A DNA stretch of 63,061 bases, filler included, from Klebsormidium nitens (taxonomy: Eukaryota > Plantae > Klebsormidiophyceae), in NCBI GenBank assembly GCA_000708835.1. It is 9 parts of 9 records of this genome, joined end to end, with 100 filler letters (N's around TTAATTAATTAA, not from the genome) between each part and the next. Parts side by side here need not be neighbours in the genome. Positions count along the whole stretch, not along the records: positions 9,206 to 19,128 come from DF238179.1; positions 19,229 to 34,201 come from DF238026.1; positions 34,302 to 38,596 come from DF238536.1; positions 38,697 to 45,935 come from DF238307.1; positions 46,036 to 53,961 come from DF238267.1; 4 more parts are not named here. One strand, 5' to 3'. The notes under the pieces are model-generated. The model ran no database searches and was not told the DNA's origin. It saw only the letters and a list, made by a program, of their open reading frames with translations. Made by a program: the position numbers and the translations under genes. Position 1 is the first letter of the stretch, and the number at the start of each line of letters is the position of its first letter. Positions 14,661 through 53,385 of the stretch are shown piece after piece.

Positions 14661-17600
14661 CAAGAGCGTCGCTGCGGGGCTCCTCCCGAACACGCCCACC
14701 ACCTTTGCCAAGCTCAAGGTGGGAGACGACCTCGTCGTGATCGATCTGCGCGGCAACAACTCACCCGCCTGCCTCGTAGCACCACCCACTACGTACGTAG
14801 ATGGGGCAGGGGCGACCATGGGTTACGTGGCTGCCGGGACGGGCATCCCGCACATCGACGACCTGCCCCCTCTGCCGCAGTTCCTCATTGACTTGCTGCA
14901 CCAGCGAGCGACGCCCCCTGCGGGAGGCGATCGGAGGGGCCCAGAGGCCAGAGCTCACGGGCCTGAGCGGCCCCCATCGGTTGAGCCCGACCTCGTCTCG
15001 CCTGAGCTGCAGGCAGAGGTGGTCAGCGAGCTCAGGAGGCTGCTGTGCGGTTGGGGGGATAACTCCTCTGTCTTCTCGGATGCGGTGGCCTCGTCTGTGG
15101 GGCCCGGGGTCCTGTACAAGTTCCGGAACGGGCCGCAGGGTCGAGCGGCCTGCCCCTACTTCCCAGCGGGAACGGGCAACCACGACTCGAACAACTTCGG
15201 GCTGTTGCGGCGAGGAGTGGAAATCAGCTACATCTGTCACGGCGAGAGATGCAAGACGGAGGCGCGGGCCAACAGCATCCGACGGGGAGCTCTGCCTTTT
15301 CCCGTGGCCGCCTCCTTTTCCGACAGCCAGCCCCTGAACAGCAAGCGGAACCGGCTCTACGTGGACCGGGAGCTGTTGCCGATGGCCTTCCTCCGAGAGA
15401 ACCTGAACGTGTACAGCGGTGAGTGGCATTTTTGACTCATGCTTCTGCTGTCCTAGCATGCAGACAGGAGAGACAGGAGAGACACGTTTTTGGAAGGAGG
15501 CTCTGGCAGATTTCCGATCAAAAAGTCGGCCCCAATCATTGGGACAGGAGAAACGGGAGAGACACGTTTTTGGAAGGAGGGTCTGGCAGATTTCTGATCG
15601 GAAAGTCGGACCCAATCATTGGGACAGGAGAGACGGGAGAGACACGTTTTTGGTCGAACCCTCATGTGCCATTGATTTCGAATTCGGTGCCTTTTCGGCT
15701 TCAAACACGAGGGACGGGAGAGACACGTCTTTAGAGGAGGGTCTCATGTGCTTTTTCTCCACACCGTCTCGCAGGTGACGTGGGCGGGGCGACCATCATC
15801 GAGCGCATCTACCTCAGGAAGGGGCTCAAGTTCGTCTTCACTCCGAACGGGTGGTTCTACTGGAACGGGATCATCTGGGTCGCCGACGAGGGCGGCAGCC
15901 ACATCCTACGAATCATGCGCGAGGAGTTGGTCAAAGTAGAGAAGGGCTACCTGGCCGAACGAGGATCGAACCTCGAGGCGCGGTCGGACGAGGCATCGAT
16001 GGAGAGCGACGACGAGAGCCTGACGGACTCGGGTACCGCCGGTACCGGGGGAAGCGGCAAGAAGAAAGAGCCTAAGATCGTCAACTTCAACTTCAACGCG
16101 AAGATGTCGAACGTACTCACCACCTGCAAGGACCTGTTCTTCAACGCGGGCTTCGAGGGAAAGCTGGACTTCAACCGGGACTTCAGGGCCGCTCAGAACG
16201 GGGTCATCGACCTCAAGACCGGGGGGCTTCCAGCCCCACCACCCGCGGGTGAGCGCGACTAATCGTCTTGCCTTTTGCACGCTCGAACTCTCTATGTGTT
16301 TCTGGTCGCAACCTCCTTCGCTCTGCCGCAGTCTGTCTGGAGCGCTCGCCGGTATAGGCCCTTTCTCTCATCGACTCTCTTCGTTTTCCTGCAGTTCTTG
16401 CACAGCAAGTACATGAGCTGGTCTTACCCCTCGACGGGGCTAGTCACACCGTTGGACGGCCTCCTCCGTGTGCTTCGGGACATCATGCATGCGGAGGCGC
16501 CCGACGGCCAAGAAGCGATGGATCATCTGCAGTGCCTCCTCGGCTACGGGCTGACGGGGCATACCAGCAGCCAGGTAGGTCGTCTCACCTATTATGGTTT
16601 CATTTAAAAACAATTCTACTAGGGAGTCTGACCGAAGTCCCGACATCTCCGAGTCAATGCTGCCTGCGATCTCCCCGTTGCACAATCCCCTGTCGAAACG
16701 CTCCCATCTTGCACTCGATGCCGATGGCCGAGAGGCGTTCGGATCATCTGCAATGCCTTTGGCAAAACGGGCTGGGAGAGGGACACCTATTATGGTTTCA
16801 TTCAAAAACAAGTCTACTAGAGGATTCTCCCCGTCGCATCCAACCACTGACTCGTTCGGACCTGCAGGTATTGGGGATCTTGTACGGCGAGGGAAGCGCA
16901 GGCAAGAGCGTCCTCATGGCCCTGCTGAGACTGCTCCTCGGAAGGTTCTACAAGGACATGAGCAAGGACATCGTCGTGAGCGCGAGGGGGCAGAGGGCGG
17001 CGGCGAAGGGCGCGGCATCGCCCATGGAAGCAGGTGAGGAGCTCATCTTGCAAAGATTCTAGAATATGAGCCGGGGCCGAGTACGAAAAACATGTCTCTC
17101 CCGTTTCTCCCGTCGGTTCCTCTGCCGGTCAAAGGTGCGTATCAGCTACAAGCCCAATGACTTTCCTGTTGAGGTTTGCAAGACTGAGCTCCTTTCAAAT
17201 GCACTGCAGGTCTGAAGGGGATCCTGATGGCGGGCATCAAAGAGACGAACGTCACCGACACCCTGGACGAGGGCGGGGTCAAAAAGCTCACGGGTACGGA
17301 GGTGGTCACGGGGCGGCCCCTGTTCAAGGACTTTATCACCTTCAATGCGATGATGCTGGTGAGGCACTTGGGGATCGACTTGCTTTCTCTCGAACTTTCT
17401 GACTCTGAATGCCCCGAGGCCCCGAGGGAAGAGGAGAGAGCGACGCACGCGAAGAAAGGCGTCTGATTGCTCGATCTTTTCACCGCATGCGAACAAAGCT
17501 CTTGCTTTCGAGTCCGATCTCCTCTTCCTCCGATCCCCTGCAGCTCATCCTCTGTACGAACCACCTTCCACAGACCGAGAAGGCTTGGTCGATCGCTCTC

Positions 17601-18161
17601 CAAAGGCGGCTCCAGCTGGTCTGCTTCCCGAAGCGCTACTTCTCGATCAACGAGGATGGCTACGACTCGACGAACCCCCTCCACGGAGTGGTAGACACCA
17701 AGCTTGTCGCGGGGCTGAGCGACGCTCCGCACATGGAGCAGTTCCTGGTCCGGCTCGTGCAAGGGGCCGTCCTGTGGTACGCGAACGGAGAGCGGCTGCT
17801 CCCGATGCCCGCTCGCAGCATCGCAGCATTGGATGCCTACCAAGTCGACAACGACCCCTTCGCGGCGTTCCTGGAGTGGAGCTGCGACTTGGGGCCGAAC
17901 CTGTTCATGCCGACTGTGGCGGGGATGGAGGCGTACAACAACAGGGCACGCCTGGTGGACGGGCAGCCCGCGGCTTACACGTTCGACTTGGTGGGGACGA
18001 AGAAGTTCAAGGAACTGATGGCCAGCAGAGCTCAGTTCCGGGGACCGGCAAAGACGAACGTCCTGGGGCTCGGCACGATAGCGGGTGTCACGGAGCGCGG
18101 ATACCGGGGACTAGCCCTGAAACAGCCACTGCTGGTCGCGCCCGGTAGTCACCCGGCATAG
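14661..18161 (+). CDS. Spliced Prim-Pol (C-terminal part)-Zn finger-D5_N-SF3 helicase; exons 14661-15418, 15775-16248, 16395-16574, 16868-17033, 17210-17358, 17544-18161; 5'-truncated; one extra base near 16230
   Basis: Motifs: IDLRGNNS..LVAPPTTY..LPPLPQFLIDLL (Prim-Pol end), CPY..HDSNNF..CHGERC (Zn), WFYWNGIIW and NGVIDLKTG (D5_N), LQCLLGYGLTGHTSSQ, Walker A GEGSAGKS, VKKLTG, ILCTNHLP, RRLQLVCF. All five introns are GT-AG and phase-compatible. Confidence 0.9.
15458..15730 (+). repeat. ~80-bp tandem repeat (about 3 units) in intron 1 of the D5 gene; inverted relative to 18395-19110
   Basis: GACAGGAGAGACRGGAGAGACACGTTTTTGG is repeated. CCAATCATTGG occurs at 15532 and 15612. Confidence 0.9.
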
Positions 18162-18394
18162 ACGGGAGTCTAGTCAGCTTCTCAAAGGTCGCATATGTTT
18201 GAGGACTCGTGAGATCTCATGTACATATTTGTACATTCAATGAGAACAGAAGCAAGTCGTGTCATGACGTCGCCGATCGCACATCTGCGCATCTATTTGA
18301 TACATGCAGCGTGCACATGCTCCATATTGCAATATCGTTTTTCGTTCCTCCGTCGTTTGGACTGCTGGCTTTAAAAAGCTATTGAGAAACCACC

Positions 18395-19110
18395 CCAAAA
18401 AACATGTCTCTCCTTGGATCACGTCTGCCCCCCGAATTTAGTATGCATCATGAGTGAGATTTCTGAGCCGGACCTTGCCTCCAAAAATATGTCTCTCCCG
18501 TCTTTCGTGTCCCCAATGATTGGCCAGGATTTCTGAGCTAGACCTTGCCTCCAAAAACATGTCTCTCCCGTCTTTCGTGTCCCCAATGATTGGCAAAGAA
18601 TTAGAGCCGGGCCTTGCTCCAATAAACCTGTCTCTCCTGCCTCTCCTGTCCGCCAATGATTGGCAAAGATTTCTCAACCTAGCCGGGCCTTGCTCCAATA
18701 AACGTGTCTCTCTTGTCTCTTCTGTCGGCCAATGATTGGCAAAGATTTCTAACCTAGCCGGGCCTTGCTCCAATAAACGTGTCTCTCTTGTCTCTCATGT
18801 CGGCCAATGATTGGCAAAGATTTTTGAACCGAGATGGGCCTTCCTTCCAAAAACTTGTCTCTCCTGTTTCTCCTGTCCGCCAATGATTGGCAAAGATTTC
18901 CTGCACAAGCCGGGCCTTGCTCCCAATAAACGTGTCTCTCCTGTCTCTCCTGTCGGCCAATGATTGGCAAAGATTTCTAACCTAGCGGGGCCTTGCTCCA
19001 ATAAACGTGTCTCTCCTGTCTCTCCTGTCGGCCAATCATTGGCAAAGATTTTTGTGGAAGTGCTTCATATTAAAAAGGGCGTCTCTCCCGACACTCCTGT
19101 CCTCAATGAT
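18395..19110 (-). repeat. 70-77-bp tandem array (8 clear units plus degenerate edge units) downstream of the D5 gene
   Basis: CCAAT(G/C)ATTGG at 18513, 18583, 18653, 18729, 18804, 18880, 18957 and 19032. Each is preceded by AAACGTGTCTCTCCTGTCTCTCCTGTC-like sequence, the reverse complement of the intron-1 motif. A single degenerate copy lies at ~17085-17110 in intron 4. Confidence 0.95.
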
Positions 19111-19936
19111 TTTCAATCAACATGTAACNNNNNNNNNNNNNNNNNNNNNNNNNNNNNNNNNNNNNNNNNNNNTTAATTAATTAANNNNNNNNNNNNNNNN
19201 NNNNNNNNNNNNNNNNNNNNNNNNNNNNCCAGCTGGCGGGCCACTTGTGCCACCTGTCATTATCAGAGATGGTTGATGAGCGCACACCAAGTAAGCTTGT
19301 CTCCAAAACGCTTCTGGTACACAACAACAGAAAGAAGAAGACAGTCAACGCAAGAAGCCCAGGAAGAAAAATCTTGCCCAGCTTCTTGAAAGACACCGGT
19401 TGAGGAACTCTCCACACATTTCCCGAGAAACGGTCAACTGCAGTTGCAAGGAGGTTCGAACGCCACATGAGCAAGCTGAAGCTGCTAGAAATATGTATGC
19501 ATGGCCCCACATGCGACCAAGCCTCCCTGTGCACGAAAGATGGCGGCATTAGCACATGTGTACCGTCAGCTTACCGTGTTAATTCATTTGTAAATCGATC
19601 GATGGTGAACATTCTCACGCTTCTTGATCGAGTCATCATGTGCACAATGCACCGAATAAACGCATACACAACACACATGTGTGTGCCGTGAGGCGGCAGC
19701 AGCTAAGCCCTTAGCTTAGCTATCATATGGTGACGGCAAAACTGAAAAAAGACCATCATGCAAAATTGGCAATTACAGACGCTTCAAGGGACGAACTTCG
19801 GAAGTCCGGGCATGTGCTCCGTGTGCACTTGGAACCGAAACCCCGCAAGATTGATAGGTCGAGATTTCACACAACGATATTTTATCGAGCCGATGCTGAT
19901 CAATCTCCCCTTGGTCAAATGATCTGATATTATATG

Positions 19937-20997
19937 CTACTCCGACAAAGCTGTTGTCGAAGTGACAGGCACTTTGAACAAAAGCTCGTCTAGCTTCATT
20001 CGCAGCCGGAGCATACTCCCGGGCGCCTCGGCGGCCTCCCGGCTCTCGGCCGCCTCTTCGTACTGTAGCAAAAGCGTCTGCATCACGAACAGTTGCATGT
20101 CCACGGTCTTCAGGTCCTCCCGGGGGAGCCTGTCGAGCACCCGGAGCGCCCGGTCTTCGTCCTCGGCGTTTACGCACGCTCGCAGCAGCCTGCAAGGGAG
20201 CAGCCAACTGAAATCGAACAGGGCCTTTAAAGGCCGTTCTTCTGGGGTCACCCGTGGACTCCCACTGCTTAGAGACCTGCCTCGCGGTCACGATTCAAAC
20301 AGTGGATTGGAAAAGTCCCTGAGTTCGGTCTGTAGCCGCAGTGATTGGCCTACATCCATGCGACGAAGACGGCCAATATGAAGGTTCGGCTTCGTGAAAG
20401 CCAACACGCCTTCACGTGGCTTGTAAAAGACGTTAGGCTTCGTTCACGCCTTCTAACGTGAAGCTTCTTGCTTCAGTTACCAAGTGCTAATTCTGGTGAG
20501 TGGTGAGAAGGACGCACTGCTCGACAGCTACGTCGCCTTCTCAACGGCTTCGCTTCCTGATGCCATGTTGTTGCTAGGTCTCTGAAGCCCGGACAGAAGT
20601 ATCGCTTTCCAGGAAACTTCGAAACGCAGTCCGATGTCCGGAAGTTTGCGAACTTGCTGGGGGCAGGTCATCAACACGACCACCAGGCAAAGTACACCTG
20701 AGCACATGCCGTTAAACTTTGCACCTTCGGTTCGCCCCTCACCTGACGAGCGTTACGATCGTCGGCGGCAGCCCGTACTCTTCCTCCATCCGCCGCACGA
20801 TCCCCTCCGCCATTTCCGCGTCCAGCGCGGCATCGCAGCAGTCGATCAGCGCCTCCATCCCGATCCGGGTCGGCCGTAACCCGATGCTAACCATGCTGTC
20901 GACGACGCGTAACCCGTTACTAACCGTGGGCAGCCGGACCCCGTCTTCGCGCTCGTCCTCGGAGTTGTTGCCGTTCGGTGCACTTTTGGGGGAGCAA
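19937..20997 (-). CDS. 3' exons (20997-20743, 20189-19937) of a PPR-like helical-repeat protein
   Basis: The spliced translation GLRVVDSMVSIGLRPTRIGMEALIDCCDAALDAEMAEGIVRRMEEEYGLPPTIVTLVR|LLRACVNAEDEDRALRVLDRL fits two to three 35-aa PPR units. The phase-2 junction AG|GTGAG ... TTGCAG|G is in frame. Further candidate minus-strand exons lie at 21.9-25 kb but could not be assembled. Confidence 0.65.
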
Positions 20998-25952: not shown

Positions 25953-26153
25953 TTGACCGTTTCTCGGGAGATGTGTGGAGAGTTCCGGTGTCTTTCAAGA
26001 AGCTGGGCAAGATTTTTCTTCCTGGGCTTCTTGCGTTGAATGTCTTCTTCTTTCTGTTGTTGTGTACCAGAAGCGTTTTGGAGACAAGCTTACTTGGTGT
26101 GCGCTCATCAACCATCTCTGATAATGACAGGTGGCACAAGTGGCCCGCCAGCT
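25953..26153 (+). repeat. Near-identical inverted copy of 19231-19437
   Basis: About 200 bp with 2 substitutions and one 6-bp indel (CTCAAC). Similarity begins exactly after a TGCAG acceptor in both copies. Confidence 0.9.
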
Positions 26154-30450: not shown

Positions 30451-31624
30451 AAAGATTAGGCTGCCAGTTGCCAAACGAATGCTTGCGACGTATTGAACTA
30501 GAATACTGCAGAATACTTGACAGAGAATGTTGGATTGTCTCAGGACACTATTATTTTCATGCAATCCCCGCGAGAGCGGGACGCCGGAAGAGTACGCTTC
30601 TGACGCAAAAGCGACTTTTCGGATATGGGTATGTTCAATGAAGTGCCACGGTAAGTCAACATGACTGGTAATGTGGGAATGATATATGTGCGACCTTCCT
30701 GGTCATGCACACTTACTGAGAGCCAGAGCGCCATGAACTGGTATCGTAGACCCTATACAAACTTCGCCCGTGGTCGATCAATAGCTCGACACGTGGACAG
30801 CCGATGCCATCGCATGCCCGGGACATGCCACACACATGAATCCCAGAGGCATCTTGGTCTGTAATTGACAAGGAGCGTTTACAATCAATCATGCAGGAGC
30901 TATTATAGAGGACAATCGAATAAATATTGGGGACATTTAGTGCAGCAAAAATCTGTCGAGGACATGAGGTTCATAAAAACTGGTACGTCAGCGTAGGCGT
31001 GATCATATCCAAGCAATAACATGACGACGATATGAACTGGCTACAGCTACTGGATTTACATCATTCGAAACCGAGACTCAGCCAAATATACCATGGTTGC
31101 CTGGCGCATGCCACATAGCAAGCTCAAAGGCACGCGAACGCGGCGATCGAGATCAGCCATTAATACAAGCCAGTAGTATACGGTACTTCGATCGGGTGTG
31201 AGGAGAACGGCAGCAATCATCGGCGTTTGTGAGTGACTCTGCCAGCTCATTTATTGACTATAATCATGTACATTCTTATGGCGAACCTACCGGCAAAGTC
31301 CGAACCTTCTCATACTGCTGGATTTCCGACCCGTAGCTGGCAAGCATGGATATCCAGGTTTGAAAAGTATTCCCCCTCCTATTATATTGTTTCCAGCAAT
31401 TCGGATTTTTTATAATGTGGAAGCACTTGACACGACTCTGACAAGACTAGCTAAGAAACAAGTAAAAGTCCTCTCTATTTAAATTTACAATACAATGGGG
31501 TCGGGCGCTCTCAAAATATATTTTCAGTTAAAGAACGCACTAGCGCATAACTTTGGCAGCTCCGATGTCCCCAGAGCGGCAAAGGGACGGCACGGCTCGC
31601 ACGGGCACCCGACATGACGACTGC

Positions 31625-34091: not shown

Positions 34092-34766
34092 TCCGAGCTC
34101 CGGGGCGAGCTAGAGTGGTGCTTATAGGCTGTTGATGTTGCAGGCTTCTGATGCTGAGCGTGAGCAATGCTGAGGTTGAGGAAAAGCGCACTTGAAAAAC
34201 CNNNNNNNNNNNNNNNNNNNNNNNNNNNNNNNNNNNNNNNNNNNNTTAATTAATTAANNNNNNNNNNNNNNNNNNNNNNNNNNNNNNNNNNNNNNNNNNN
34301 NCCATGCAAATCTCGTCACGTCATGTTGCCGTGACCACGCTTTCTGTCTCAACTTGTGAAGCTTATCGTGACAGCGTGTCGTTCTCTATGTGTGTGGCTA
34401 AGATAGCGTTCTTTGCTGTAGCTTCTCTATGCGGTTGAGACGTGACCAGTCTCGAGTCAGTCAACGGTGCGCTGTTGTCTGCTCTTCTCGACTGGGATCT
34501 CTTCTGCTACGGAGCTAGCAAGTCTTGCGGGGCAACCGCAAGGCGTATGAAAAGAGTCAAGTTTCTGCGACCAGCCTCTTCGTGAGTGGGAACACAGCAG
34601 ACAGAACTTGGAAGCATCAAGCAACACTTTTACAGAGAGGCGCTCTCACGTGTCTTCCTTGTCTGTGGGCTGCAAAGCTTGCCCATGGTTTCCGCACATG
34701 TGTAAGCAGACTGACAGCCGTAAGTGTATTCAGTCCAACGGCGTGCTAACTAGCCCCACCGTCACA

Positions 34767-38596: not shown

Positions 38597-38699
38597 NNNN
38601 NNNNNNNNNNNNNNNNNNNNNNNNNNNNNNNNNNNNNNNNTTAATTAATTAANNNNNNNNNNNNNNNNNNNNNNNNNNNNNNNNNNNNNNNNNNNNAAT

Positions 38700-40345
38700 A
38701 TCAGGACTTCTTTCTGATGACGTCAGCAACTACACCCAAACAATGTTCCGGAAGACCTCGGACACTTGGACAAGCCCCCAAGACCGACCGCATACCAGCG
38801 GCTAACCAAGTGTTCAAGCTTTTGCTAAAGATATCGGAACTCCTTGCGGATGACGTCAGCATGGGGGGCTCTGGCTGGCGCTTTGCGTCTTGACGGACTG
38901 CTGCAACCCTCAATCAAGCAAGTGCTCACCTCCAGCTCCGAGCAAGAGCACGAAGATCTCTTCTCGGGTATGACCATTTAGAGCATAGCCATACAGCTTC
39001 CGAACGTAGTCCACCAGCTCAGAGTCGTGGTTGAAGATGTCGCCTAGAAAAGCATCAACGAGCGGAGCTGGGTACTCGATCCCCTGCAGGAAGAAACAAG
39101 CTGCTTCTTATGATGCGAACACTCCAGCTTCTTGCATGTTGCATTAGCGAACAAAGAAAAGACTCCAATGCCAACGAAAGTAGATAAATTCTAAAAGACA
39201 ACGTGCGACATAGCAAAGCAGTATTGGCAATTCAGGATGCTAATCAATTCTGCAGACGAAGTGTCAATTGCTGCACCCACAAGACAACAGAGACAATTGC
39301 AGCGAACCTGCTTGGCACTACAAAGAGTAGCTACTCAAGCCTTGTCGCATGCTTTGTCAAGGGCTTGGTTGTCGATCCAAGCAAAAGTGGGGCTTACCAT
39401 GAAGTCCGTCTCTGCAATCTTTGAGCACATGTACTCGGGCCTGTGCGCATCGAGCATGCCCGTTCTCAGAAGGAGCACGCCATTTCTGACGTTCAGAATA
39501 TCCGGGTTTGCATCCAGCTGTTGGACGAAATCGGGGACAAACAGCTCACCCCGGACGAGTTCCAGGGTACTGCCCATCTCTCGGCTATTGTTGTACGTGC
39601 GCAGGCGCTTCAGCTGCTGTTTCAGCGCCTCCCGCTATTCCTCATCCGGGGTTGCCTCAATCGTTGCACTCAACTCGTCCCTCACTCGCTTGTAGACGAT
39701 CCTCAGCTGATTGATGAGAACGGTTTTCACGAAGAATGCACTCTTCTCATCAGCTACAAAGCGCCGCCCGTTCCAATAGTGCCAGCACACACCATCAAAG
39801 CCTAATCTGCAAAAACCAATAGACAAAGAGAGATGGATGTCGGCTGTCCAAGTGTCCAAGTTTTTTTCAAAGACAATTCCGGACTCCTTTCTGCTGACGT
39901 CAGCAACTATAACCACACAATCTTCCGCCCGAACTTTGGACAAGTGGACGAACCCCAAGACCAAACTCGTGCATACCGTTGGGTGTCCAAATAGCTGAGC
40001 TTTTACCAAAGACTCTCGACTCCTTCCCTGATGACGTCAGCAATTACAACCACACAAAATCTTCCGCTAGACCTTGGACACTTGGACAAACCTCAAGACC
40101 AAGTGCATACTGTCGGCTGTCCACAAGTCCGAGCTTTTACTAGAGACTTTAGACTCTTTTCTAATGACGTCAGCAATTGTAACAACACAATCTTCCGCCA
40201 GACCTTGGACACGTGGACGAACCCCAAGACCGAACTCGTGCATACCGTTGGGTGTCCATATGTCTAAGCTTTCACCAAAGACTTCTGACTCCTTCTCTGA
40301 TGACGTCAGCAACTACGACCACACAATCTTCCGCCAGTGCTTGAA
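38700..40345. repeat. 133-137-bp tandem repeat family in two introns of the second Prim-Pol/D5 gene (2 units at 38700-38860, 4 units at 39840-40345)
   Basis: TGACGTCAGC at 38718, 38851, 39895, 40032, 40165 and 40301. Each unit has TTGGACA(C/A) doublets and inverted TGTCCA. The same short motifs recur at 41395-41425 and 43100-43220. Confidence 0.92.
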
Positions 40346-42930
40346 CGATTGGACACATTCTTCGACCCGGGCTGTTGTCAGTGGCAGCACGACCCAATGG
40401 TCAAGTCAGGTTACTCTTGACTGGTCAAGCGTCCAAAACGGTCAATAAGAAAAGAAGGAAACACAATAACTACTGAAGAATAACGCAACTCGGTTGACAT
40501 GATCCTCACCTGCCGCAGCTTGCGTACATCTCAGCAACAATCTTGCTGCCGCCGACATCGCCCTCAAAAGCCCAGTGATCCACGAAGCTCTTGTGCAGGG
40601 CGTTTATTGCAGTGACGTCGTCGGCACAAAAAGCTTGGGTCTCGCCGCCGGCCATGGCCTCTGAGCGCGTGAGCTCTCCAATCTTTAGTAAAGGACGGAC
40701 TCTCTGGCACTCTGAGCTATTGCAGCAATAGAGCAGGTTCCTCTTGCGCATCAACACGCTGAAGTTGTTGGCGCCGTCGTGGTGATTGCCGTATGGGCAG
40801 CGTCGAGGGCCGTCCACTCGGAACACGTACATTGGCCCGTTGACGCCCACCTTGAGGCGATCAAAGCGGGAGGCGTTGTCACCAGTAGCCGCCACGCAAG
40901 CTTTGACGCGCTCCAAGACTGCTGCTGGGGGGGTCTGCTGAGACTCTTCGATCTCGCGAGGAGGTCCAAAAGATGTAGTCTGCGACTCGCTGCAGAATTC
41001 AAAAGAGTGAATGTTGATTGAAACCGAGTTACATGATTTTCTCAAGCTTACGGGAGTGGGGACAAGTGGGATGAGACAACTCAGACATCCCGGTGAAAGC
41101 GAGTAAACACGTAACTAGAGGGAGAGACACAGAGGTATGCGAGCGTTTCAAATTTTCCCTGCTTTTCGTCTCAATGGTGTGCGCCGTGTCACGTTTATGG
41201 CACACGGGTTGGACAGATCAGGTGTGTCATGGCCAACTTTGCTTCGCGGACACCAAACCTCAGTTCCAAAACGTTCTCCCTTACACTGGACAGATCGTCC
41301 AACTAACTGGGCCGAGCTGTTCACTCGATTGAAGCACTTTACAACAGTGGCTTGATGACATCATCAGATTGCAACCGAAAACTTTGTTCTAGAGCTTGGA
41401 CAGTTCGGACAGCTTGGACAGCTCAAATAGGCCCTACTCGACTTCGGGGTGCCCAAACTCAAAAACGATATTTTGAGTGGCATATGAGGCATTGAGGCAG
41501 ATTAACGTACCTGGCTTTGCCCCCCTCCCGAGGTACCTTGACACCCCCGCTTGTTGCCTCGCTGTCGTTGTTCAGGATGGAGATGAGCCATTCTGGCACG
41601 GCTCTGAGACTGGAGCGGTCAGGCAAGATCTCCTGGTCCCATTCGTAGCGCCGCAGTGTGCTATCAAGAGCCGTATAGGTGCTGGGTGCAGTGTACAGCA
41701 TCCCCCCCTTCCCGCGCACATCGATGCCCACCGCTTGACCCTTGTAGCGAATTCGGGCTCTGTTGCAGCAGTTGCGCAGGCCAGCCTGCTCGGACTGGGA
41801 GAGAGAAAAGAGGATGTGCAGCCCCCCGTTCCCGGTGGTTAGGCGGGGCGTGTCTTCTAAGAAATTCTCGTGCTCTTCAAGCATCTGCTCGAGCGCTTCA
41901 AAGCCCCCGTCCTTCACATCCACATCAAGAGCATAGATGTCTGACACCTCTGTAACGATGGCAATAGAGTTGCGCCCCGGCTTGGCAAATTCGGAAAGGC
42001 AGGTGCTGAGGTTTGCCTCTTTCCAGGGTTTGGGGGACGCCCAGTGAGAGGGGGCTTTGCAGACTTTGCCGTTCTTTTGCAGCTTTTCCTGAAGGTCGTG
42101 GGTGACGGTCACTACGCCAAGGCCGTGGAAATAATGAGCAGCAGCGAGGATGGGGTCGATTGGCTGCGTCGGCTCAGCCCTTGATTGCGCCGGGGCCGTG
42201 GCTGCTGGGCTTGGTACCTGCAAGAGGAGGACCTCAATTGTTTCAGGATTTGCTGTTGGGGCGGTAATCGCACAGAACAAGTCACAAAGAAAGAGCTGCC
42301 CAGTTTCGGTGCCCGTCAAGAGACTATCCGCTCAACCTTGATTGATGTCTTACTTCCGTATCCTAGCGTGTCATCATCACAAGCTGCAGCAAGTTCTAGT
42401 GTGACCTAAAGACAATGTTGGCTCTAAGTACGTGACATGATCAGTAACGATCTCAAAGCCTACCATATTTGTAGGGAAAGCCCAATTTGTGGAAGCCATC
42501 TGTTGAGGGTCCGCGATGCGGGTTATTTCTAACGACGAAGCCAAGCGGCCGAGTGGAATCGGGTTGACCTGTAATCATGAAAGCATCTTGGCAAAACCAT
42601 CATCAACTTAAGCAGAACAAAAAGGGGCTTGGGTCTTGAGATCTGTGAACACACCTGGGACGCAGGCTCCCTGCAATCGCACCCCAAATGGGGGTCAATG
42701 CGGCAGATGCTGAAGTATGCGCGCAGTTCCGTCCAATCACAGCCATCGTCCCAGTCCCATGTAGAGTCGTCGTGATCAGTACAGAGGTCGCCCCAGTCAC
42801 TTGATGCAGCAGATTGATCCCCCCCCTCGGAGCCCAACTCATATGCTTCCTCTTCAGCTTCGGCTTCCTGACTGGACGAGGACACTTCCACCCGGCAACG
42901 ACGCGCTAGACGATACTGCGCATCCCCATC
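38930..42930 (-). pseudogene. Spliced Prim-Pol (bifunctional primase/polymerase)-Zn finger-D5_N helicase; exons ~42930-42655, 42217-41511, 40989-40510, 39806-39398, 39083-38930; P-loop part lost in the gap; in-frame TAG at 39635-39637
   Basis: Motifs: IYALDVDVKDGG, TTGNGGLHILF, IDVRGKGGMLYTAPS, VPEWLISIL (Prim-Pol); CPYGNHHDGANNF..CNSSEC (Zn); WHYWNGRRF, LNVRNGVLLLRTGMLDAHRPEY, YVRKLYGYALNGHTREE, LLGAGG (D5_N to the start of Walker A). All junctions are phase-compatible GT-AG. Confidence 0.9.
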
Positions 42931-44650
42931 TTGATCGCTTCCCACCCGGTTGCCCCGGTTGCCCAGCTTACGCACTCCCAACTGAACGTTTGACTCTAAA
43001 TGCTCTATGTCCATCTGCATAAGCAAAAGACTTCGCAATCAGCTAGAAGCTACAAACACTGCTAACATCAGCAACTCCAAGGATCATACTTTTCTCTACA
43101 AAGCTTGGACAGCTCAGACACACTTGAATTAGGTCGAGGCAGTCAGCGACAGTGAAAGCGATGACGTCAGCACGCGGCCAACGCTGAATAGTTTATGCCA
43201 GACTTTGGACAACTCGGACAAGCTCAGAGAGGCCCTGATTGAATTGACGCAATTGACGCTATTAATTGGCGCGCAAATGTACTTTGATATAGAGCTTGGG
43301 ACAACTGTGCACAACAGACGCTGCTCGAGTTGATGCAATCATCTACAAAAGTCTGATGACATTAGCAAGCCCGACGGCACTGAGTACGTTTGAGACTTCA
43401 GGCAGCTTGGATACTTGATTTGTTGGATTTAAGTTCTCAATCACAGAAACACGTTAATCAGCTTCAGACTGTCAACAAGTATAGTAAAGCCACAGACTCA
43501 GAGCTTTCAGGCTGGATTGCTCAGCAGCGTCCATGCCAGGGAAGCTCATGGTAGCTGGCGCTTCTTAAGAAGACAGCACTGCTGTCAAACCGGGCTGGAA
43601 CCCATAATGACAGGGCAGCTTTAAGGGGAGCTTTAAGGCTGGCTGCTTTAAAGCTGCCTTGAGAGTTTGAGCTGGTCGAAAAAAATCGCTTACAATGGAA
43701 CGAAATTTGAGACAGCGAACTCACCAGATGATTTGTTACGGTTCTTCTCTCTTGTTCATCCACTGAACGATGGCCGTGGGCAGAATCCCTTGATGGTAGG
43801 CAATTGTCAAGCATCGTCCAACCCGAGTCACTTTCAGAGTCTGCACAAAGGCGCATCTAGACCTTTTATTTCCATAACCTGCCGCAAAACAGGCCTGGCC
43901 AGCTAATGGTGAAAAGAACCTTATTGTTTGTGTGGTGTTGCAATGGTCTAGCGGCAGGCTAAGCGATGCCAAATAATATGGTATGCTTTGCCAGCCTCAT
44001 GAGCAGCTCCCTCCCGAACAGCTACCTGGAAACCTGAGCTGGAATAGTGAACAGTGGCAGAGGCTTGTCCGCATGCATGAGAAATGAAGGCTTACCCTGT
44101 GGCTTCAGCTCTAGCCAGTTTCTAAATACTTGCCATATGCCCAGTCAGCCCGTGCAGGGCGGCAGCGTATCTAGCATATCTAGCATATCTAGAAACAGGC
44201 TTTCGCTTGTAAGTCGGAGAGTGACACCTTTCGGTCTGGCGTTCGCTGTGGAGGTATGAATGCTGGCAATGAGAATTTACATTCGCAGGATTGAAATTTG
44301 TAGGCCGCAGTCTGCAGCCCGTCGGGACTTGTCCAGTCGCGAAGGCCAAAGAAGCGTCCACGTATAACAAGGAAACGCGCATACGTACCGAGCTCTCCGC
44401 AGCATACGTAGTGCAACGTGCGAGGCGGGATATTGGCCCTCAAAAGTGTCCACTCGGGGACAGACCCGGCCGGGAGAGACCCGTAGCGGAAGTTCCGAGT
44501 TCGAGGCGTCATGAATAATTTATGCGCCCGTGAACGTGAATCGGGGTTCGGAGCTATTTGCTGAAGAGCATTCAGGAATATTCGTATCCACTCAGAAACA
44601 CCAGGCTCTTCGCTTCACTTTCCGTATTCGTAGGGGCAAATAAAAGGGCA

Positions 44651-44921
44651 ATGGCAAATGCTGAGGAAGAAGTTCGTGGCAAAGGCTCTGCTCTGCCGTC
44701 CAACCTGAATCAGCCGGCCCTCATTCGGATTCTTCGAAGAGGCACCAATGAACGTCGTTCTCTGAAAGCACAATGCAGATGCAAAGCAGTTTTGGACTTC
44801 ATCAGAGACAGGGCATGTTGGGGAGAAGGGGAAATAGCAATTTTGCAGAACGGCGAGGAGATTTCTTGTTTAGACGAAGAGGAGCTTCAGGCTGGTGATT
44901 ATGTCTTCACAGCCTCTAAGG
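44651..44921 (+). CDS. Probable first exon of an uncharacterised gene
   Basis: ATG-initiated 90-codon open frame (MANAEEEVRG...LQAGDYVFTASK) ending at a G|GTGAGT donor. No family assigned. Confidence 0.35.
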
Positions 44922-46077
44922 GTGAGTGACAATACCAGTATCTTGCATTTTCCAGATTGCACAAAGGTCTGATCAAGCACTTCGGTGAATTGGTGTCTGT
45001 TCAAGTGATGAACCAGCGTTTGAGCAAGTGGAAGAAAACGATGCGCTGGCCTGTTAACTCTGCCTGGTATGTAGTTGAGTATGCATGGTTTTTCTTGGCA
45101 GATTAAGGGCTTGATTCTGGTCATTTCTGAGCAACAGCACTCGTGCATGCCTGCAATTGGGCAGAGTGCCGGAGCTCGCTGGTTCATGGTAGACGCGGTG
45201 ATCCACACCACCCCTCAAGTGTGTCGGTGCCAGTTTGGAGCATGTCCCTCTGCTTCCCGGGTTGTTTCACCCGTCAGGCCAGAACAAGATCACATAATCC
45301 TGGAGCTGGTGTTTGGTTTGGAAGTTGATCATCACAGCCTCTGATTGCGACAAGGCATTGCTCAACGAGTTTTTGGTCAGTCTTGGTGTTCTCGTAACAG
45401 TTTGCCCGCTGAAGGTCCTGTCAGGGTGGATAAAAAGATGTTCAGCGTCATCCGTCAAATCATGTTGCAAGCTTTATGCCAGCATCTTTCTATTGCTTGG
45501 GCTGAGGCAAGCTTGAAAGCTTGCTTGCCTAAGATCCACAAGGATTGCAACCACAATAATGACGACAAATGGACAGGAACAGTCTGTCAGGATGGCCGCT
45601 GCACATCCAGGAAGTTAGCAGATCGCTGAGCATGCCATCACTGTCAATTATCAAGGCCGACACTCCAAGGTATTTGAGTTGCCTGAGACTCTCGTCTGTC
45701 ATTCTTTAAACATATCAGAAAGGAACCAGCGGCGCCCTCTGAGGATTTTGTTCCTAGACTGCTGCCTGCTGCTCCTCTTCAAAGATTTTGATGGTTGGCA
45801 GACCCTGCCAAATTGCACAGCGTGGGGAAGGCTGGCAGCCTTTTTTCATTCGAACATGCATCCGCTAACCCCATTCTCTCTTTGCCCCAGCTGCTGCACG
45901 AGGGGAAGGGACCGAGGGCGCGGGCGCTTCAGGGGNNNNNNNNNNNNNNNNNNNNNNNNNNNNNNNNNNNNNNNNNNNNTTAATTAATTAANNNNNNNNN
46001 NNNNNNNNNNNNNNNNNNNNNNNNNNNNNNNNNNNAACTTCAATACATTACGACCAGATTACTCCCTAGCTTGCTAA

Positions 46078-49000
46078 CTAACGAACCACAATCATACATT
46101 CCTCAGAATCGTCCTTGCCTGCCGGCGAGCTCAGATCCTCTAGCAAAGGGTAACCAGACGGCCTACGCAATAAATGATCAAGATCGCTCGCATCTACCTC
46201 GTTGAGAAACCCTCTGACCGCAGGCTCTAGCTCTCCCCGATGCTGCCAAACACGAGGGACTTCACAGAACTGCAGCTTGACGAGCTTTGCCATCCTGAGA
46301 ACGCTCTTCCGATCTAGCTTGTACTTGTAGTCGCTCTTTCCGGACCCCGACTCGTACTGCTTCCCCTTCCCTCGTCGCGGGCGGCCCACCTCAATCCCCT
46401 TCCCCACCTTCAGGCCCATGTGTTCCAGCACTCCGTTTATCACACCCTTGAATTGACCTGGATCAAGATCAGCCTTGCCCTCTTTGGGTGCCGGCAACTG
46501 AATCTGGAACATCTCAGACACGGCACGCTCCGACATTGCGGTTTTTGCGCCGACCTGCTTAGGGCGGCCTTTGAACAGCTCTGATTTCAGGAGCCTGTCT
46601 TTGAGTCCGCCTGCAAGTAGTGAGCGACTTGCACCGCCCACATCGAACGCATGCGCCAGGCCCATGTCCTCGAGCAGCCCCCGCGCCGTCTCCACCATTT
46701 TGACCTCGTGACTCTGGCGAGCCACCCCCCCCTCATCCAGCAACTTCCCCTTAAGTAGCACTTTGAGCAGAAAGTCGAGCTTCTTTGAGAACGGGGGCTT
46801 GTAGCCGGCCTTTGTTTCCTTGAAGAAGTGCTCGTCGAGGTCCTTCAACCCGTAAAACTGGCAGGCCTCGTACCTCATCACCTCGAGACTCTGCGCCCCC
46901 CTGTCCCTCTTCACATCTCGCAACCTTCTCAACTCCTCGTACTCTGCCGCACTGATCGCACTCGCCCCGATGATCTGTAACGCCTCTGCGTCTAGCCCTT
47001 TCCGCCTCTTACTCTTTTTCGAAAGCTCTTCGGGTTGCTCGACCTCCACCACGTGGCCGGCTCGCGAGACTTGCAGCTGGAACTCGTGAAGCAGTTCGAA
47101 TTCCGCCGCTCGGCTTCCGTATGCGCGAACGTCCGGAAGAGGGGGCCGTCCTCAATCAACCGGACAACTTTGCCGGGGTCCTCGGTCCTTGTCGCGGCCC
47201 GCTTCCATGCAGCCGTCACTTCGTCGTTGCAGGCTTGCAGGAACTGCAGCGTCTCCGCCGTGGTCACGCGCCGGGGGGGACCAAAGAATCCCTGCAGAAA
47301 GGAACCTTGGATTGAGCAGAATTTCATCAGAGCTCTGCCACAGTCAAGTGTTGTCATCTCCATCCGGTTCGGAGGTTGCTCAGAAGCTCCCGAAATGGGC
47401 CTCACAAAGCTGCCCCCCAAACTGGCCCTCAACAAAGCTAGCCTCTGAACCGGCCCGAAACTGGGCCCCACGAAAGTAGCCCACCAGACCGAGCGGCAGA
47501 AGAATCGGCCCCAAATGTGGCCCTACAGAACCAGCCAAGGACTGGAATGGGCCTCACAAAACTATCGCGCTATGTATGAAGATATGCTCACTGTGTGCTT
47601 TGCAAAGCCATGCAAAGCCGGACAGTCGGACGGAGTCTAAGGCAGGCACGATGATAGATCGTCACTTCCCACCCACCTTGAGTCGCTCAGAATGTTGGCC
47701 AGAGGAGGCCCCTACGCCAGACTGGAAACCGGACGCCTGGTTGAGAGGAGAATCGACGGCCACTTGCTGGTCCAGGCGGTCGCCATCAGCATCCTGCGAA
47801 AGAAAAAGGAGATTACTCGTGTCGATTTCCCAGCAATTGAGCACGCGTCTCCGGCAGCATTGTCAGCACATCTGCAAAGAAGTACTTCAAGAGGGCCGTC
47901 AAGCAGCACTCGGAGTACAGGCTTGGACGATCGGACTCAAATCGCTGACAAGACAAGAAGCGATGCGCATAGTGAGAAAGACAGATGAGATGGAACGTTA
48001 CCTGCAAAGTAGACTCGTCGTCCGCGTCCGATGCATGCGGTGCCATAGCCGTCGTTCCCTGCACGTCAAAAACAAGTTGAATCCTTGGTAGACACCAGAT
48101 TCGGAGACGCACACTTCAGCTTGAAACAAAGCGCAAGTGGCTTCTGCAGATTGAGCACGATCCAGAGTGACGTGCTCAACATCAAGCGAGTAGCTAAAAG
48201 GGCAAAGGGCAAGGGGCTTCTGCAGATTGAGCACGATCCAGAGTTACGTGCTCCACATCAAGCGAGTAACCTGGAAGAGCAAGACACCACATGCAATCTG
48301 CTCACCTGCTGATCCAGAGTGCAGAGTCGCGTGGCCGGGATCTCTTGCGCACAGTCGAGCATCACGGAGATGGACGACTGGACGTAGCAGTGGATCAGCG
48401 CGCTCTCCGTTTTTCGCACCCGCAGCGTCGCCTGCCAGGCCGCCCGAGCCGTCGTGCTCTTCTTGCACATGTAGAGGAACTTGGTATGGAACCAAGGAAT
48501 GTCAAAGTTCACGCCAGCCTCGACGGTGGGGCTGTACATGAGCAGACGAACCTTCCAGTTCTCTGCAACGTTCTTAAGGAGAGCCGTAGTTTCGCCCCCG
48601 CTCAAGGCCTTGTGGATGAGGATGTCCGCGTCTGCGAGCCGAAGCGCGAGGTCCGACGTGACCCGGTCCCGGATGCGGTTCAGGACCTTCGCGGACATGC
48701 TGACGACGACCACGTTCTTGCCAGCTGCAAGATCCTCGACGATTCGATCCAACCACTTCTTCTCATCCTGACCGACACGGAACGTCAAAGGCACCTGCGC
48801 ATAAAGCGGTGCAAGAAATGAGCGCGCTGTGGGCTGAATGTATGTGAGAGAGCATTGGTACCAAGAAAGCCCGCCTTTGAATGTAGGAACGAACACGCTG
48901 CGCCATCAAACACAACTTCAATTGGCAAAGGTGACGGTATGGCCGGGCCCTATTAGCGGTCCAAGAGGTGCTTTAAAAAGGTCCGAGCAACACGTACTGA

Positions 49001-52000
49001 GGCACACTTGCCTTTGAAGGCGCTCAAGAAGAAAAAGAAAACTTGGCAAAAGGCTGAAGTTCCTGTTCCGTTTTTATCCTGCTTCTAACATCTTCGGCGA
49101 ACATAGGCGCGGCCAAAGCAAGGCATGCTGTGTCGAGCAATTCCAAGCGCCCAGACTCCGAACGGCCAGAACTTCAGCAAACAGGAAGATGCATTGCGTC
49201 AAAAGCTGTCGTCACTGATCAGAGCGCGATCAGTTCAGTGCCTACCGCTGCCCTTCTTGTGTTGATGACGAGCTTCCCAGGCACGTTTGCGAGGCGGAAG
49301 AAGTCGTGCTCCCGCTGCCCGTATCCATCATCCATGGCCAACACGCGCTTCGCCCGCTGCACAATCTCCAGGAACAGCTCACTGGTCTCCATCCCGTTCC
49401 TCACAGTCGCCGCGGAGAGGTGCGCCAGGATGCTCGCCACCTCGTCGAGGATCACGAGATCGAACGGGGCCACTTCACCAATGCTGCCCCGCCGGAGGTT
49501 AAGGAGACTGTCCACCTGAACCACGATTTCGGGAAAGTCCTTCCGAGACTGCAGGGCCGTTAGGAGGTTGTGCTTGTTGTCCGGATCCGGGAACCACACG
49601 TTCTTGTGATCGTAGTCCGCCTTCAGGTCGAGGTAATTTGCGGTGCGGGGAAAGCGCGCTTTGAGGTCTTGAGCCTGGGCCACTCGGTACGTGATCATGA
49701 TCGACGTGTGGGCGCGGCCGCTCGCTTGCCAGAGCTCGTCCCCGACCGCCCCGCAGAACACCGTCTTGCCAGTGTTCACGCCCGACCGGATGCCGAGCAG
49801 GGGGGATCTGCCCTCGATCCACCTGCGCGTGTCGACCACAGAGTTGTCAACACGACCTGACACACTCTAAGGCGAGAATTAGGCCAACGTTCTCAACAAA
49901 GGTCGGCTGTGCAGTGACCCCTTGTATCGTACGGATTGAATTCACCTGCAAGCAACTCCGAATGGTAGGTAAGCGCTTGGAACTTTGTGTATACGGCCTG
50001 AGATCAAAAGCTTGCAGCCCTGCGCTGGTCTCAGAACAGACACGTGCCCATTAAATAATGGTCGTAAATGCCTTGAAAGGAGGACACTTGATATTAGGAC
50101 AATCGTCAGGTTTTGCATGCAGGCCTTGTGGCAAAGAAAGAAACCCCGGTGGGAGAAAGGAACCCTGGCAGTAGGTGGGCGCCAAGGAGCGCCCGCTGAT
50201 ACAGCACGCAATCTTAAAAATAGACACACGGTACAAGAAAAGCTCCTTGTAAAGGTGAGCGTCCCGGAAGCACAGCAAGTCTCGCAACAAGCCCCACGTT
50301 GTCCCCAATTTTCGCCCCGTGGGTTTGCTGCCAAAACAAGAGCTTGCCAACCTAGCAGATTCTGAGAGCTTGTCACATCACAATGCGCACGCACCTACTC
50401 ATTTGGTGGTATTACTTACTCGTTGGCGACGGTGTTTAGCTTCATCAGATCGTCCGGCATCCTCCGCCCCGCTGCTACTTCGGCCACGAGCTCAGGGGTC
50501 GACGCACCAGGGACACGCGTAAGGTGCTCCATGTCTACCTTGACGGCGTCCGTCTCGTACGAGATGTTGTCCTCGAACAGGTCCCCCAGGCAGTACGCCC
50601 TCTTGACACAGGGGACGTCCGAGTCCCCACCCTCGGTGTTTTGGCTGAAACACAGAGCATAGATCTTGCCGTTTGAATTGAGGTGACATGTTAAATTCTG
50701 ACGGTTCTCGTGGATCCGACCCGTGTAGCACGGCTCTGTGCGATCGCTGTAATTATAGCGATCTGGGCCCTCCTCGTAAGCGCTAGGGTGCAAGCGCTCC
50801 CTGAGCAGCGCTAGCATGCGGGCCTTGACGAACTCCTCGTTCTTCGAGCTGCGCTCCGTGCCCCGTTCAGACATCACTCGGGGGTTTTGGAACCTCTCGT
50901 GGAGCCTTTCGGGCACTTCGAATGGCAGCTTGACCTCCTCACGGGACTGCAAACATCACGAGGGCAGCTGGTTACGAGGGCATTCGTGCCAAATCATCTA
51001 CGTCGCCTTGTCAAAATGAGAAGAGGGAGCAGGGAAGGAGGCCAAAACACTTTGTGTTTGGCAATCATCTGGCTTGAGAAACTTGCACCAATAGTTACGT
51101 GAGAAGGACATATTGCAGCAAAAGCCCAGCGCCTTGAAATGCACCGATTCTACCAAGCATCAACGCTGATGAGGCGATCAGAAGCAATGAGTGCCCCACA
51201 AGCAGGGTCCTTTTTCGAAGAACCTATAGGCCGCGCTTCAAGGAATCACGTCAGGCTTGCCGCAAAAATAGCAGCACTTGTGTACCAAGAAACGACGTAT
51301 TACTTCTTGAAGATCCTAAAGAGCCTTTTCTGGTACATCATGCGGGTATGGCCGGGCAGCCCATCAAGCACAAAACCAGCAGTGTGTACCAAGAAACGGC
51401 GTATTACTTCTTGAAGAATCTAAAGGGCCTTTTTTGATACATCTTGCGGGTATGGCCGGGCAGCCCATCAAGCGCACAATCGGCCCCTGTACCATGAAAG
51501 GCTGTATAACTCTTTAGATTTAAGTAGACAGCCGTTTTCTCGTACACCCTTCACAACGTGATCGACCTGGCGGGTGTGGGGCCTAGATGAGCTCCTCACC
51601 TCGAGGGGCTTGAGCCAGGTCACCAGAGCATCCTTCCAGGAATGGGCCGGATCGATGCACGACAAGACGCTCTCCGGCTTCTCGATCTTGGCGCTCCCCG
51701 GGGTCCGCCACTCGCGGTCCTTCGTGTACACGTTCAGGTCTATGAGAGCCGCGACTGCGAGATCCCAAAGGAGCAGCCTCTTCTTGAGGCGCCTTGCAAA
51801 GTGGAGAGCCCCTTCGGTGTTGGAGCCGAAGACGAGCTGACGGGGGGACAGCTGGTTGATGGTGAGGTGGAGGCTGAACTTGCTTTGACCCGGGCTCTCA
51901 ATCCAGACGAAGCTGCTCCGCTGCAGCTCATGGTCGTACTGTTCCTTGAACACAATAGTGGCCCACTTCTCGATGATCCGGATGACCTCCTCCCCCGTGT

Positions 52001-53385
52001 ACCTCTCCCCACCCTCCACGACCTCCCCATCCGCCCCGGTCTCCGGCTGACGCTTGAAGGGGAGCCCGTCCTTGCCGTCGAGGTCGAGGTAGGGCTTGCA
52101 GGGCTTCCCGTTCTGGATGATCTCCGTCACCGACCCGTGCCGCCCCTCGAGATGCGATCGCGCCGTCTCCCACCCGGGGTACGAAGCGAAGCTGCGCCAA
52201 GGGACTCTCACCCCATCCCTGAACGTCCCGGACCACTTGTGCAGCACCACCTGCGCCTCGTGATTTAGGAGCGCCGCCTCCTGCTGCATGAAGAACTTTG
52301 GGCCGGGAAGGCGGCCCCTGGGGTTCGACCCGGCCTGATGGAAGCTGTTGGTGCCGTGCTCCCGCACACGCAGCACCCGAAACCCGTCCTTCTTGAAGAC
52401 CTCGTTGCCGATCAGCGGGTCGGAGTGCACCGCTGGCTCAGGCACCGCCACAAAATCCTCGTGCGCCATTGAGAACCTGCATGAGAAATGTAGGAAAGGT
52501 CAAAACACCGCAGCACAAGAGAGGCTGGCATACCTGCGTAACCTTTGGCCGTGCTCATGAAGAAGAAAAACGTCACTTCCTGAGGTCAGAACAGGCCGCA
52601 AGTTTTGTGGACATAGACCCATGTTGGTGGACAGGCTTGATGGGCTGTGATGCATCAGAAAAGCCTTGCTAACCATGCCTCCCGCTTCACAGATCTGAAG
52701 CACCACTACACATGATAGGCCGGCCGACCTTGCACTAAAGCATGCACCACGAAGCGGGCTCGCACTAGCAAAGAGAGAACGACAAGGCTTGGTCCCCCGT
52801 TCATGTCCTAGATTACTGGCTGATGTACACGTATCAGCAATCTACAAAGAGCAGTTGTGGCGACCAATCGTAGCTCGGGAGCTACCACTGCTATCATTCT
52901 GAAATGCTTATAGTTCCTGACTGTAACTTGATGTACACTCCGCGCCATCGTATTGATAGAAATTTTGACAGCGATTCGCCCAAGAAGCACATCAGGCAGT
53001 CCAAGAGAAGCCGGGGTGACAGGTCTGCAGCCCCCACCAGATTTGTAAACTTCACCACAATCTTTTATAGAAGAGCTACTCACACAGAGGTCTGTGGCGC
53101 TTCATCCCGGGCCCGCCTCCTCTGCATCTCCCTCCGCATGGGCGCCAGCGCATCGTCTGGGGTCTCGTCTGCCGCGACCCGAGCTGCCTCTTCCTCCATT
53201 TCCATCCGCCGGTACAGATCCAGTCTTTCAGCGTCCGGCTGCGTTGAGTCGTCGATGCCCCGGTCGTCCTCAGAAGTGGGCTCTTTGTCGGACTCGGTCT
53301 CGTCTGACGTTTCTTCAATGTTGACGGAGGCGGCCTCTTGGTCGGACGCCGCCGCAACCTCCTGCAGGATATTGGAATCAAACAT
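46078..53385 (-). CDS. Spliced AEP primase-Zn finger-UL9-like SF2 helicase (~1330 aa); exons 53385-53084, 52476-51600, 50946-50420, 49822-49246, 48794-48306, 47291-46078; 1-bp deletion near 47087
   Basis: AEP motifs KPYLDLD, SKFSLHL, IDLNVYTKDREWRTPGSAK. Zn finger PCYTGRIHENRQN...ALCFSQ..PC. SF2/UL9 motifs IRSGVNTGKT, ITYRVAQA, VVQVDSLLNL, LVILDEVASILAHL, YSPTVEAGVNFD, QATLRVRK. Exon lengths sum to 3986 nt, one base short of a codon multiple, matching the single frameshift. Confidence 0.88.
51280..51495. repeat. ~105-bp tandem duplication in an intron of the AEP-UL9 gene; a similar ~76-bp duplication lies at ~48140-48270
   Basis: CAAGAAACG(A/G)CGTATTACTTCTTGAAG...GCGGGTATGGCCGGGCAGCCCATCAAGC occurs twice. 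GCTTCTGCAGATTGAGCACGATCCAGAGT occurs twice. Confidence 0.85.

Follow-up and report, generated by a model that had tools for sequence, protein, structure and literature searches.

Spliced primase-helicase genes in Klebsormidium nitens: three repeated families and the case for intron-bearing mobile elements

Background

Why does the nuclear genome of a streptophyte alga contain large, spliced genes for virus- or plasmid-type primase-helicases, and do such genes belong to elements that copy themselves? The question is raised by 63,061 nucleotides of Klebsormidium nitens DNA (assembly GCA_000708835.1), referred to here as the window. It consists of nine small contigs separated by artificial linkers (including 9106-9205, 19129-19228, 34202-34301, 38597-38696, 45936-46035 and 53962-54061). 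An initial annotation described three large spliced primase-helicase genes on three different contigs and proposed one candidate family of self-replicating elements. The three genes (A, B and C) are present as described; domain matches and gene models confirm them, and Prim-Pol, D5_N and Herpes_ori_bp matches bear out the virus/plasmid-type architectures. They are, however, members of three separate repeated families. Introns occur throughout, and splicing of transcripts is seen for homologs of A and C. All three window copies are damaged, so working elements are not found at these loci. On balance, we lean towards reading them as dead copies of intron-bearing mobile elements which replicated with their own primase-helicase.

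Data and scope

Context beyond the contigs came from protein look-ups, read mapping of A and C, and published papers. X1 comprises host DNA reads assembled into unitigs; X5 is a second host run, and X7 comes from organism B, a second organism. X5 and X7 are taken to be RNA because introns are skipped in both; the type of run is a guess. The reference depth in X1 is 17.7, measured on unique flanking sequence. Splice joints are reported from 15 of 21 (gene A, X7) and 15 of 84 (gene C, X5). The Pfam scan covered 134 reading-frame segments (25 plus 109) from the contigs other than the three retrotransposon ones.

Gene A

14652-18161, plus strand: gene A, a 5'-truncated, frameshifted Prim-Pol (C-terminal half)-Zn-D5_N-SF3 helicase pseudogene (gene model; D5_N and TIGR01613 matches; homolog splicing)
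14652-15418, 15775-16248, 16395-16574, 16868-17033, 17210-17358 and 17544-18161, plus strand: the six exons of gene A, with GT..AG introns

Gene A encodes a D5_N domain (E=2.3e-6, Pfam) and a superfamily 3 (SF3) helicase part that matches TIGR01613. The N-terminal half of the primase is gone, and motifs I and II with it. Matching to the gene begins at 14652-14653 in both a DNA paralog and an organism-B transcript; the transcript runs on upstream of this breakpoint as primase motif II, and a protein 85% identical to A (P0039) has 98 extra residues within the same exon. This copy is therefore 5'-truncated at about 14652, and the start at a splice acceptor at 14661, as first annotated, is rejected. 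A frameshift lies in a G run near 16221, which is one base longer than in the organism-B transcript and one paralog.

Host DNA contains further copies which are approximately 99% and 86% identical. In X7, contigs homologous to A are found at approximately 90-98% identity and a depth of about 336; among the joints listed, three introns are skipped precisely at GT..AG, a fourth to within one base and a fifth approximately. X5 contains more distant copies which share the intron before Walker A, and gives little cover of the window locus itself. A long-homolog search with the last exon, which was a weak search, found nothing. Gene A directly adjoins a unique host gene (9560-14066) which ends about 590 bp ahead of the breakpoint.

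Two further observations concern this locus. One paralog unitig over 14653-15012 has a depth of 4.6 against 17.7, about a quarter of single-copy; this may reflect GC bias, mosaicism or a sub-stoichiometric element. The adjoining host gene is transcribed in X5, yet X7 does not cover it at 80% likeness. Gene A, on the other hand, is 90-98% alike in the two organisms, and the contrast is a lead for possible horizontal transfer of A.

Gene B and its relationship to gene A

38930-43020, minus strand: gene B, Prim-Pol-Zn-D5_N as far as the start of Walker A (domain matches, gene model), the remainder cut off by the contig end
43020-42655, 42217-41511, 40989-40510, 39806-39398 and 39083-38930, minus strand: the five exons of gene B

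The start codon of gene B is probably at 43020. Its Prim-Pol match is strong (5.2e-14, Pfam) and the Prim-Pol motifs are intact. An in-frame TAG is present at 39635-39637 (residue 575), as read from the assembled sequence alone, and Walker A is split by the intron in which the contig breaks off. Two other K. nitens copies are GAQ92546 and GAQ92896.

A and B are 25% identical and have no intron position in common in their overlap (3 versus 4 introns), and C is unrelated to both; a single family for the three genes is thus rejected. A, B and GAQ92546 sit in a Prim-Pol-D5 clade of metagenomic proteins of approximately 710-980 residues, in which no IMG/VR locus was found (22 of 89 rows after dereplication of 139; 33 rows in a second tree). 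B groups with P0012 (SH-aLRT 96) and A forms a long branch. Both have a PF09250-type Prim-Pol and stand apart in the tree from giant-virus D5 proteins (set L002). Several relatives are uninterrupted frames of 810-830 residues on contigs of 24-395 kb, which suggests that the ancestors of A and B may have been intronless.

Gene C

46078-53715, minus strand: gene C (KFL_013180020), an AEP-Zn-UL9/R8-type SF2 helicase pseudogene (domain matches, models, reads), the 5' part lying beyond the contig
53715-53617, 53364-53084, 52476-51600, 50946-50420, 49822-49246, 48794-48306, 48058-48002, 47793-47677 and 47291-46078, minus strand: approximate exons of gene C

Gene C fuses archaeo-eukaryotic primase (AEP) catalytic motifs to a UL9-like superfamily 2 (SF2) helicase, as in R8/pF1055L-type proteins. 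Its AEP exon is 100% identical to KFL_013180020, and it matches Herpes_ori_bp at 1.7e-8 (Pfam). The N-terminal exon resembles C962R-type AEP clusters (Atlas 0.97, with a recognition value under the threshold of the tool). The gene reaches at least 53709, beyond the 53385 first given. A 7-nt deletion is found near 47090 relative to an expressed copy; a difference of 7 nt from that copy rules out a sequencing slip.

Ten annotated K. nitens proteins on ten scaffolds belong to the family. They are 61-92% identical from the AEP onward, and those of full length have 1885-1945 residues. AEP and helicase motifs are retained wherever the models cover them; motif I is missing from two of the ten models. 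Among nine long-protein hits, none lies outside Klebsormidium. X1 depth is 34-244 across the whole 7.9-kb contig, against 17.7 for unique sequence, and is still high where the contig starts and stops, so the repeated unit exceeds 7.9 kb. A 692-bp unitig reaching into an intron has a depth of 131.7 (7.4 times single-copy), which points to roughly seven identical copies or else a multicopy molecule.

Several family members are strongly transcribed and spliced in X5. Most exon bins have a depth of about 600-3800 and bins made up of intron alone 0-150, with up to six contigs overlapping. CT..AC joints are exact at 47290-47676, 47793-48002 and 48057-48305, and approximate elsewhere among those listed. 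The window copy is likely silent, since its own allele has zero X5 depth at several listed sites. Organism B has a spliced homolog at approximately 80-86% identity, present as about one transcript (3-4 contigs). The introns of the initial annotation are thus real and spliceosomal, the joints being seen in A homologs (X7) and C homologs (X5). Bacterial contamination is ruled out by the spliced transcripts together with the host scaffolds.

A 2A-like motif (xx[VI]ESNPG) is found in nine of the ten copies (P0153-P0160 and P0169), in an N-terminal extension outside the window contig. Measured against what we take to be the 2A consensus, the final proline is present in only four and the canonical aspartate in none; the motif could split a polyprotein. 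An Atlas search with the C-terminal part of P0156 gave no match and thus no lead on PF28041, and folding the C-terminal exon from a single sequence gave no usable model (pLDDT 37.5).

Copies on kfl00168, kfl00289 and kfl00294 (scaffolds of 111-164 kb) share the scaffold with plant-like genes, the nearest two loci away, according to the available part of a gene list which covers about one third of genes (PMC4052687, Supplementary Data 8).

Repeats in the introns and flanks

15460-15743, minus strand: A-repeat array in intron 1, four units of about 80 bp, opposite in orientation to the 3' array
17064-17116, plus strand: single A-repeat unit in intron 4 (E 1.7e-8)
18395-19111, plus strand: A-repeat array 3' of the gene, eight full and two partial units (70-76 bp) that reach the end of the contig
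39839-40355, plus strand: B-repeat array in intron 3, three full and two partial units of about 136 bp
38702-38861, plus strand: two B-repeat units in intron 5, truncated where the contig stops (E 1e-37)
43160-43228, plus strand: weak B-repeat copy upstream of the start codon (E 7.5e-4)
41353-41409: weak B-repeat copy in intron 2 (E 0.034)
48127-48268 and 51279-51473: two tandem duplications (1.9 copies each) within gene C introns, with no other match in the window

The A unit consists of a CCAAT-type near-palindrome and a doubled 9-bp GA-rich motif; the B unit consists of a TGACGTCA palindrome and CTTGGACA octamers in both orientations. The two are alike in layout, a short palindrome being joined to a doubled 8-9-bp motif, and a profile search of the window gave no cross matches between them. 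The best profile matches have E values of 3e-23 (A) and 4e-41 (B); ten shuffled windows gave one match for A and none for B. In DNA unitigs the A array loops back on itself, and the A repeat is repeated in the host and touched by X7 contigs.

Gene-specific repeats in introns and flank had been claimed for A and B. The intron copies are strong for both genes and the flank copies are strong for A; the flank copy of B is weak, and the units at 38702-38861, previously regarded as flank, lie in intron 5. Private repeats had been ascribed to all three genes. They exist for A and B, but gene C has the two tandem duplications only, and no dispersed private repeat of C was found in the window. Short repeated motifs clustered near an initiator gene, the arrangement of iteron replicons, are thus a property of A and B only.

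Copy dynamics and constraint

Dispersed copies of differing ages, decayed ones included, are found, as is typical of transposable elements. For C and A this is the opposite of single-copy orthologues with no sign of mobility, the outcome which would have spoken against the original proposal. Synonymous changes account for 12 of 25 listed coding differences in A and 18 of 35 in C (one of the 35 sites is probably intronic, as the exon start was set at 49864 and 49822 is likelier), against about 24% for random changes. This hints at constraint acting on the families taken as a whole. It should be put no higher than a suggestion, because the sample is the best 40 of 441 (A) and 1701 (C) rows and the expectation leaves out transition bias.

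Search for viral hallmarks and relatives

None of the 134 segments has a Pfam match to a capsid, PolB or an integrase/transposase, and the earlier statement that no recognisable capsid, PolB or transposase is present holds for these segments. Core genes of nucleocytoplasmic large DNA viruses (NCLDVs), namely major capsid protein (MCP), PolB, A32 and VLTF3, were likewise not seen on the contigs. Targeted IMG/VR scans recovered no relative; broader ones recovered only distant D5 genes, at most 33% identical (one of these scans ran over 39 of 64 parts). Metagenome scans and a prokaryote-genome scan gave no relative, and phage and plasmid searches gave distant matches only. No account of spliced Klebsormidium primase-helicase families was found in the literature searched, most subscription papers being outside its reach.

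Comparison with known systems

Phage P4 alpha combines a primase with a D5-type helicase and acts with iterons at ori1/crr. By analogy, A and B also have a D5-type helicase (TIGR01613) and short repeats near the gene; the P4 primase is of a different class, and binding of the repeats by A or B is hypothetical.

AEP joined to a UL9-like SF2 helicase is described for mimivirus R8, pF1055L of African swine fever virus (ASFV), mriyavirus SF2_hel and SmDNAV (PMC11253617; bioRxiv 10.64898/2026.08.29.747986). Gene C has the same domain order, with AEP and SF2 motifs intact. It differs in being spliced and strongly transcribed, in its long N-terminal extension with the 2A-like motif, and in having at least 10 diverged nuclear copies with no virus genes seen beside them. 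The helicase part of C alone also matches CyRepA1, the primase-helicase Rep of a cyanobacterial plasmid which is essential for autonomous replication (PMC9978351), but below the cut-off (1e-29, 104 bits against 200; model positions 4-300 of 595); CyRepA1 is bacterial.

Polinton-like viruses (PLVs) encode AEP/primpol-SF3 replicases (PMC4642659, PMC12220804). Like these, A and B combine a primase and a D5-type SF3 helicase in one protein and are integrated in repeated copies. Unlike them, A and B have spliceosomal introns, no MCP, minor capsid protein or ATPase was found nearby, and their clade has no recovered IMG/VR member. The primase-SF3 replicase of PLVs is thus present and the intronless, compact gene form is not, given that introns of A homologs are skipped. 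In two respects the genes also differ from giant endogenous viral elements: A and B lack the NCLDV-type D5 arrangement (AEP-PriCT2-SF3), and the C family is not intron-poor and silent. Viral insertions are reported to be intron-poor and mostly silent (PMC11244446 for giant viruses; PMC10120064 for PLVs), and viral genes of K. nitens are methylated (PMC12344493). Several NCLDV inserts are known in K. nitens, with DNA polymerase, MCP, ATPase and VLTF3 genes and no D5 scored, on contigs dominated by viral genes (PMC5294986). As with A-C, these are several diverged copies of viral genes in the same genome; the A-C genes were not found in the available part of that account.

Stand-alone mobile AEP-SF3 replicases, sometimes bracketed by repeats, have been proposed, and Bodo saltans virus has 11 related copies (bioRxiv 10.64898/2026.10.13.758929). 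The idea of movement without capsid or integrase is the same. Those copies, however, are in viral genomes or insertions, whereas the Klebsormidium copies are spliced nuclear algal genes with repeats inside introns. The architectures and the idea of stand-alone AEP-SF3 mobility are therefore already known; the spliced Klebsormidium families are new to the literature searched.

Weighing the explanations

The genes, their lesions, their multiplicity and the splicing of homologs of A and C are observed; from these we infer the rest of a possible life cycle for mobile elements of this kind. Intact copies would be transcribed and spliced in the nucleus. The A or B protein would bind the element's own repeats, and C would use its UL9-type origin-binding helicase; the primase-helicase would then unwind the DNA and lay down primers, leaving host polymerases to finish the copy. 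New copies would integrate via an enzyme unseen here or by host repair, and old copies would decay, as the three in the window did. Intronless replicases of viruses or plasmids, captured on more than one occasion, are the likely ancestors. A bolder version is unlikely: capsid-less nuclear replicons with a spliced primase-helicase as their only core gene, acting on its own repeat origin, with diverged families coexisting like plasmid incompatibility groups and at least one (the C subfamily at sevenfold depth) amplifying or persisting as a multicopy episome.

Several points weigh against a mobile-element origin. Neither termini nor target-site duplications, an integrase, empty sites or circular forms were seen, the contigs ending inside repeated units. 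The missing capsid is weak evidence, given the shortness of the contigs and the poor reach of Pfam for PLV capsids. The repeat motifs resemble what we take to be host transcription-factor sites (CCAAT, bZIP (TGACGTCA) and GAGA), so the units may be enhancers rather than iterons; the layout is iteron-like by analogy, and an enhancer role is just as plausible. Gene B is known from the assembled sequence and proteins alone, and unitig depth is a rough proxy and a poor count of copies. A single origin of A and B is not rejected (approximately unbiased test, p=0.206). Strong expression and the synonymous excess also fit host genes, and K. nitens is known to hold NCLDV inserts, so C could be their replicase.

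This last point leads to the rival that the genes are replicases of endogenous DNA viruses which gained introns, C being an R8/pF1055L-type gene of the K. nitens giant-virus inserts and A and B being Polinton-like, with capsid modules off these contigs. It is a serious candidate, if a doubtful one. The fusion in C is that of mimivirus R8, ASFV pF1055L, some mriyaviruses and SmDNAV, and AEP- or primpol-SF3 replicases are common in PLVs. The K. nitens insert table gives five DNA polymerase, six MCP, six ATPase and five VLTF3 genes and leaves the D5 cell blank, and some nuclear mirusviruses are described as intron-rich. In the partial gene list, conserved plant-like genes on kfl00168 and kfl00294 all have numbers below that of the C copy, and three small C scaffolds have no such gene; because the listed genes stop short of C on those two scaffolds, larger foreign blocks around it are possible. 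Yet endogenised giant-virus genes are mostly intronless and silent and endogenous PLVs are intronless, in the sources available, whereas 5 to 8 or more introns interrupt these genes and transcription of C is strong. The blank hallmark scan, the IMG/VR results (nothing in the targeted scans and distant D5 only in the broader ones) and the unique spliced host gene beside A also count against it. Domestication, in which host genes of viral origin serve as repair or nuclear/organellar replication helpers and undergo ordinary duplication and loss, with the repeats as intronic enhancers, is improbable. Conserved introns, strong expression, the synonymous excess and transcribed homologs in the second organism, where C is about one transcript, fit it. 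It is less easily reconciled with divergence that is continuous from identical to 61%, the many truncated or partial copies, the young high-depth subfamily, three parallel families, and a search that found no long C homolog outside Klebsormidium. Domestication fits the expression, and not the turnover of copies.

Other features of the window

9560-14066, plus strand: single-copy, spliced, transcribed neighbour of gene A, outside the element (DNA depth even at 17.7-18.8; X5 skips its introns)
5110-4930 and 4240-3606, minus strand: divergent spliced histone H3 with long tails (second exon Pfam Histone 9.5e-16)
19231-19399 and 25985-26153: 169-bp inverted duplication, 99% alike, beginning at a contig end
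34767-36072/36364-37045 and 472-593/1159-1280: near-identical duplications beside N gaps
54062-57482, 60330-63061 and 1-75: decayed copia-like retrotransposon pieces
57583-60229: gypsy-like piece

The last exon of the neighbour gene appears PD-(D/E)xK nuclease-like by eye and has no Pfam match. The duplications beside N gaps are possibly assembly overlaps, and the retrotransposon pieces were judged from translations.

Significance

The self-copying primase-helicase DNA elements known in eukaryotes are viruses with capsids; mobility of a replicase alone is, to date, a proposal. With a spliced, strongly expressed and recently amplified family in a streptophyte alga that is a cultured model, this proposal becomes testable. 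If the families are endogenous viral, they would be viral replicases that gained many introns and are still expressed, an interesting but less surprising outcome. If they are autonomous, a nuclear replicon of natural origin would become available for this algal relative of land plants.

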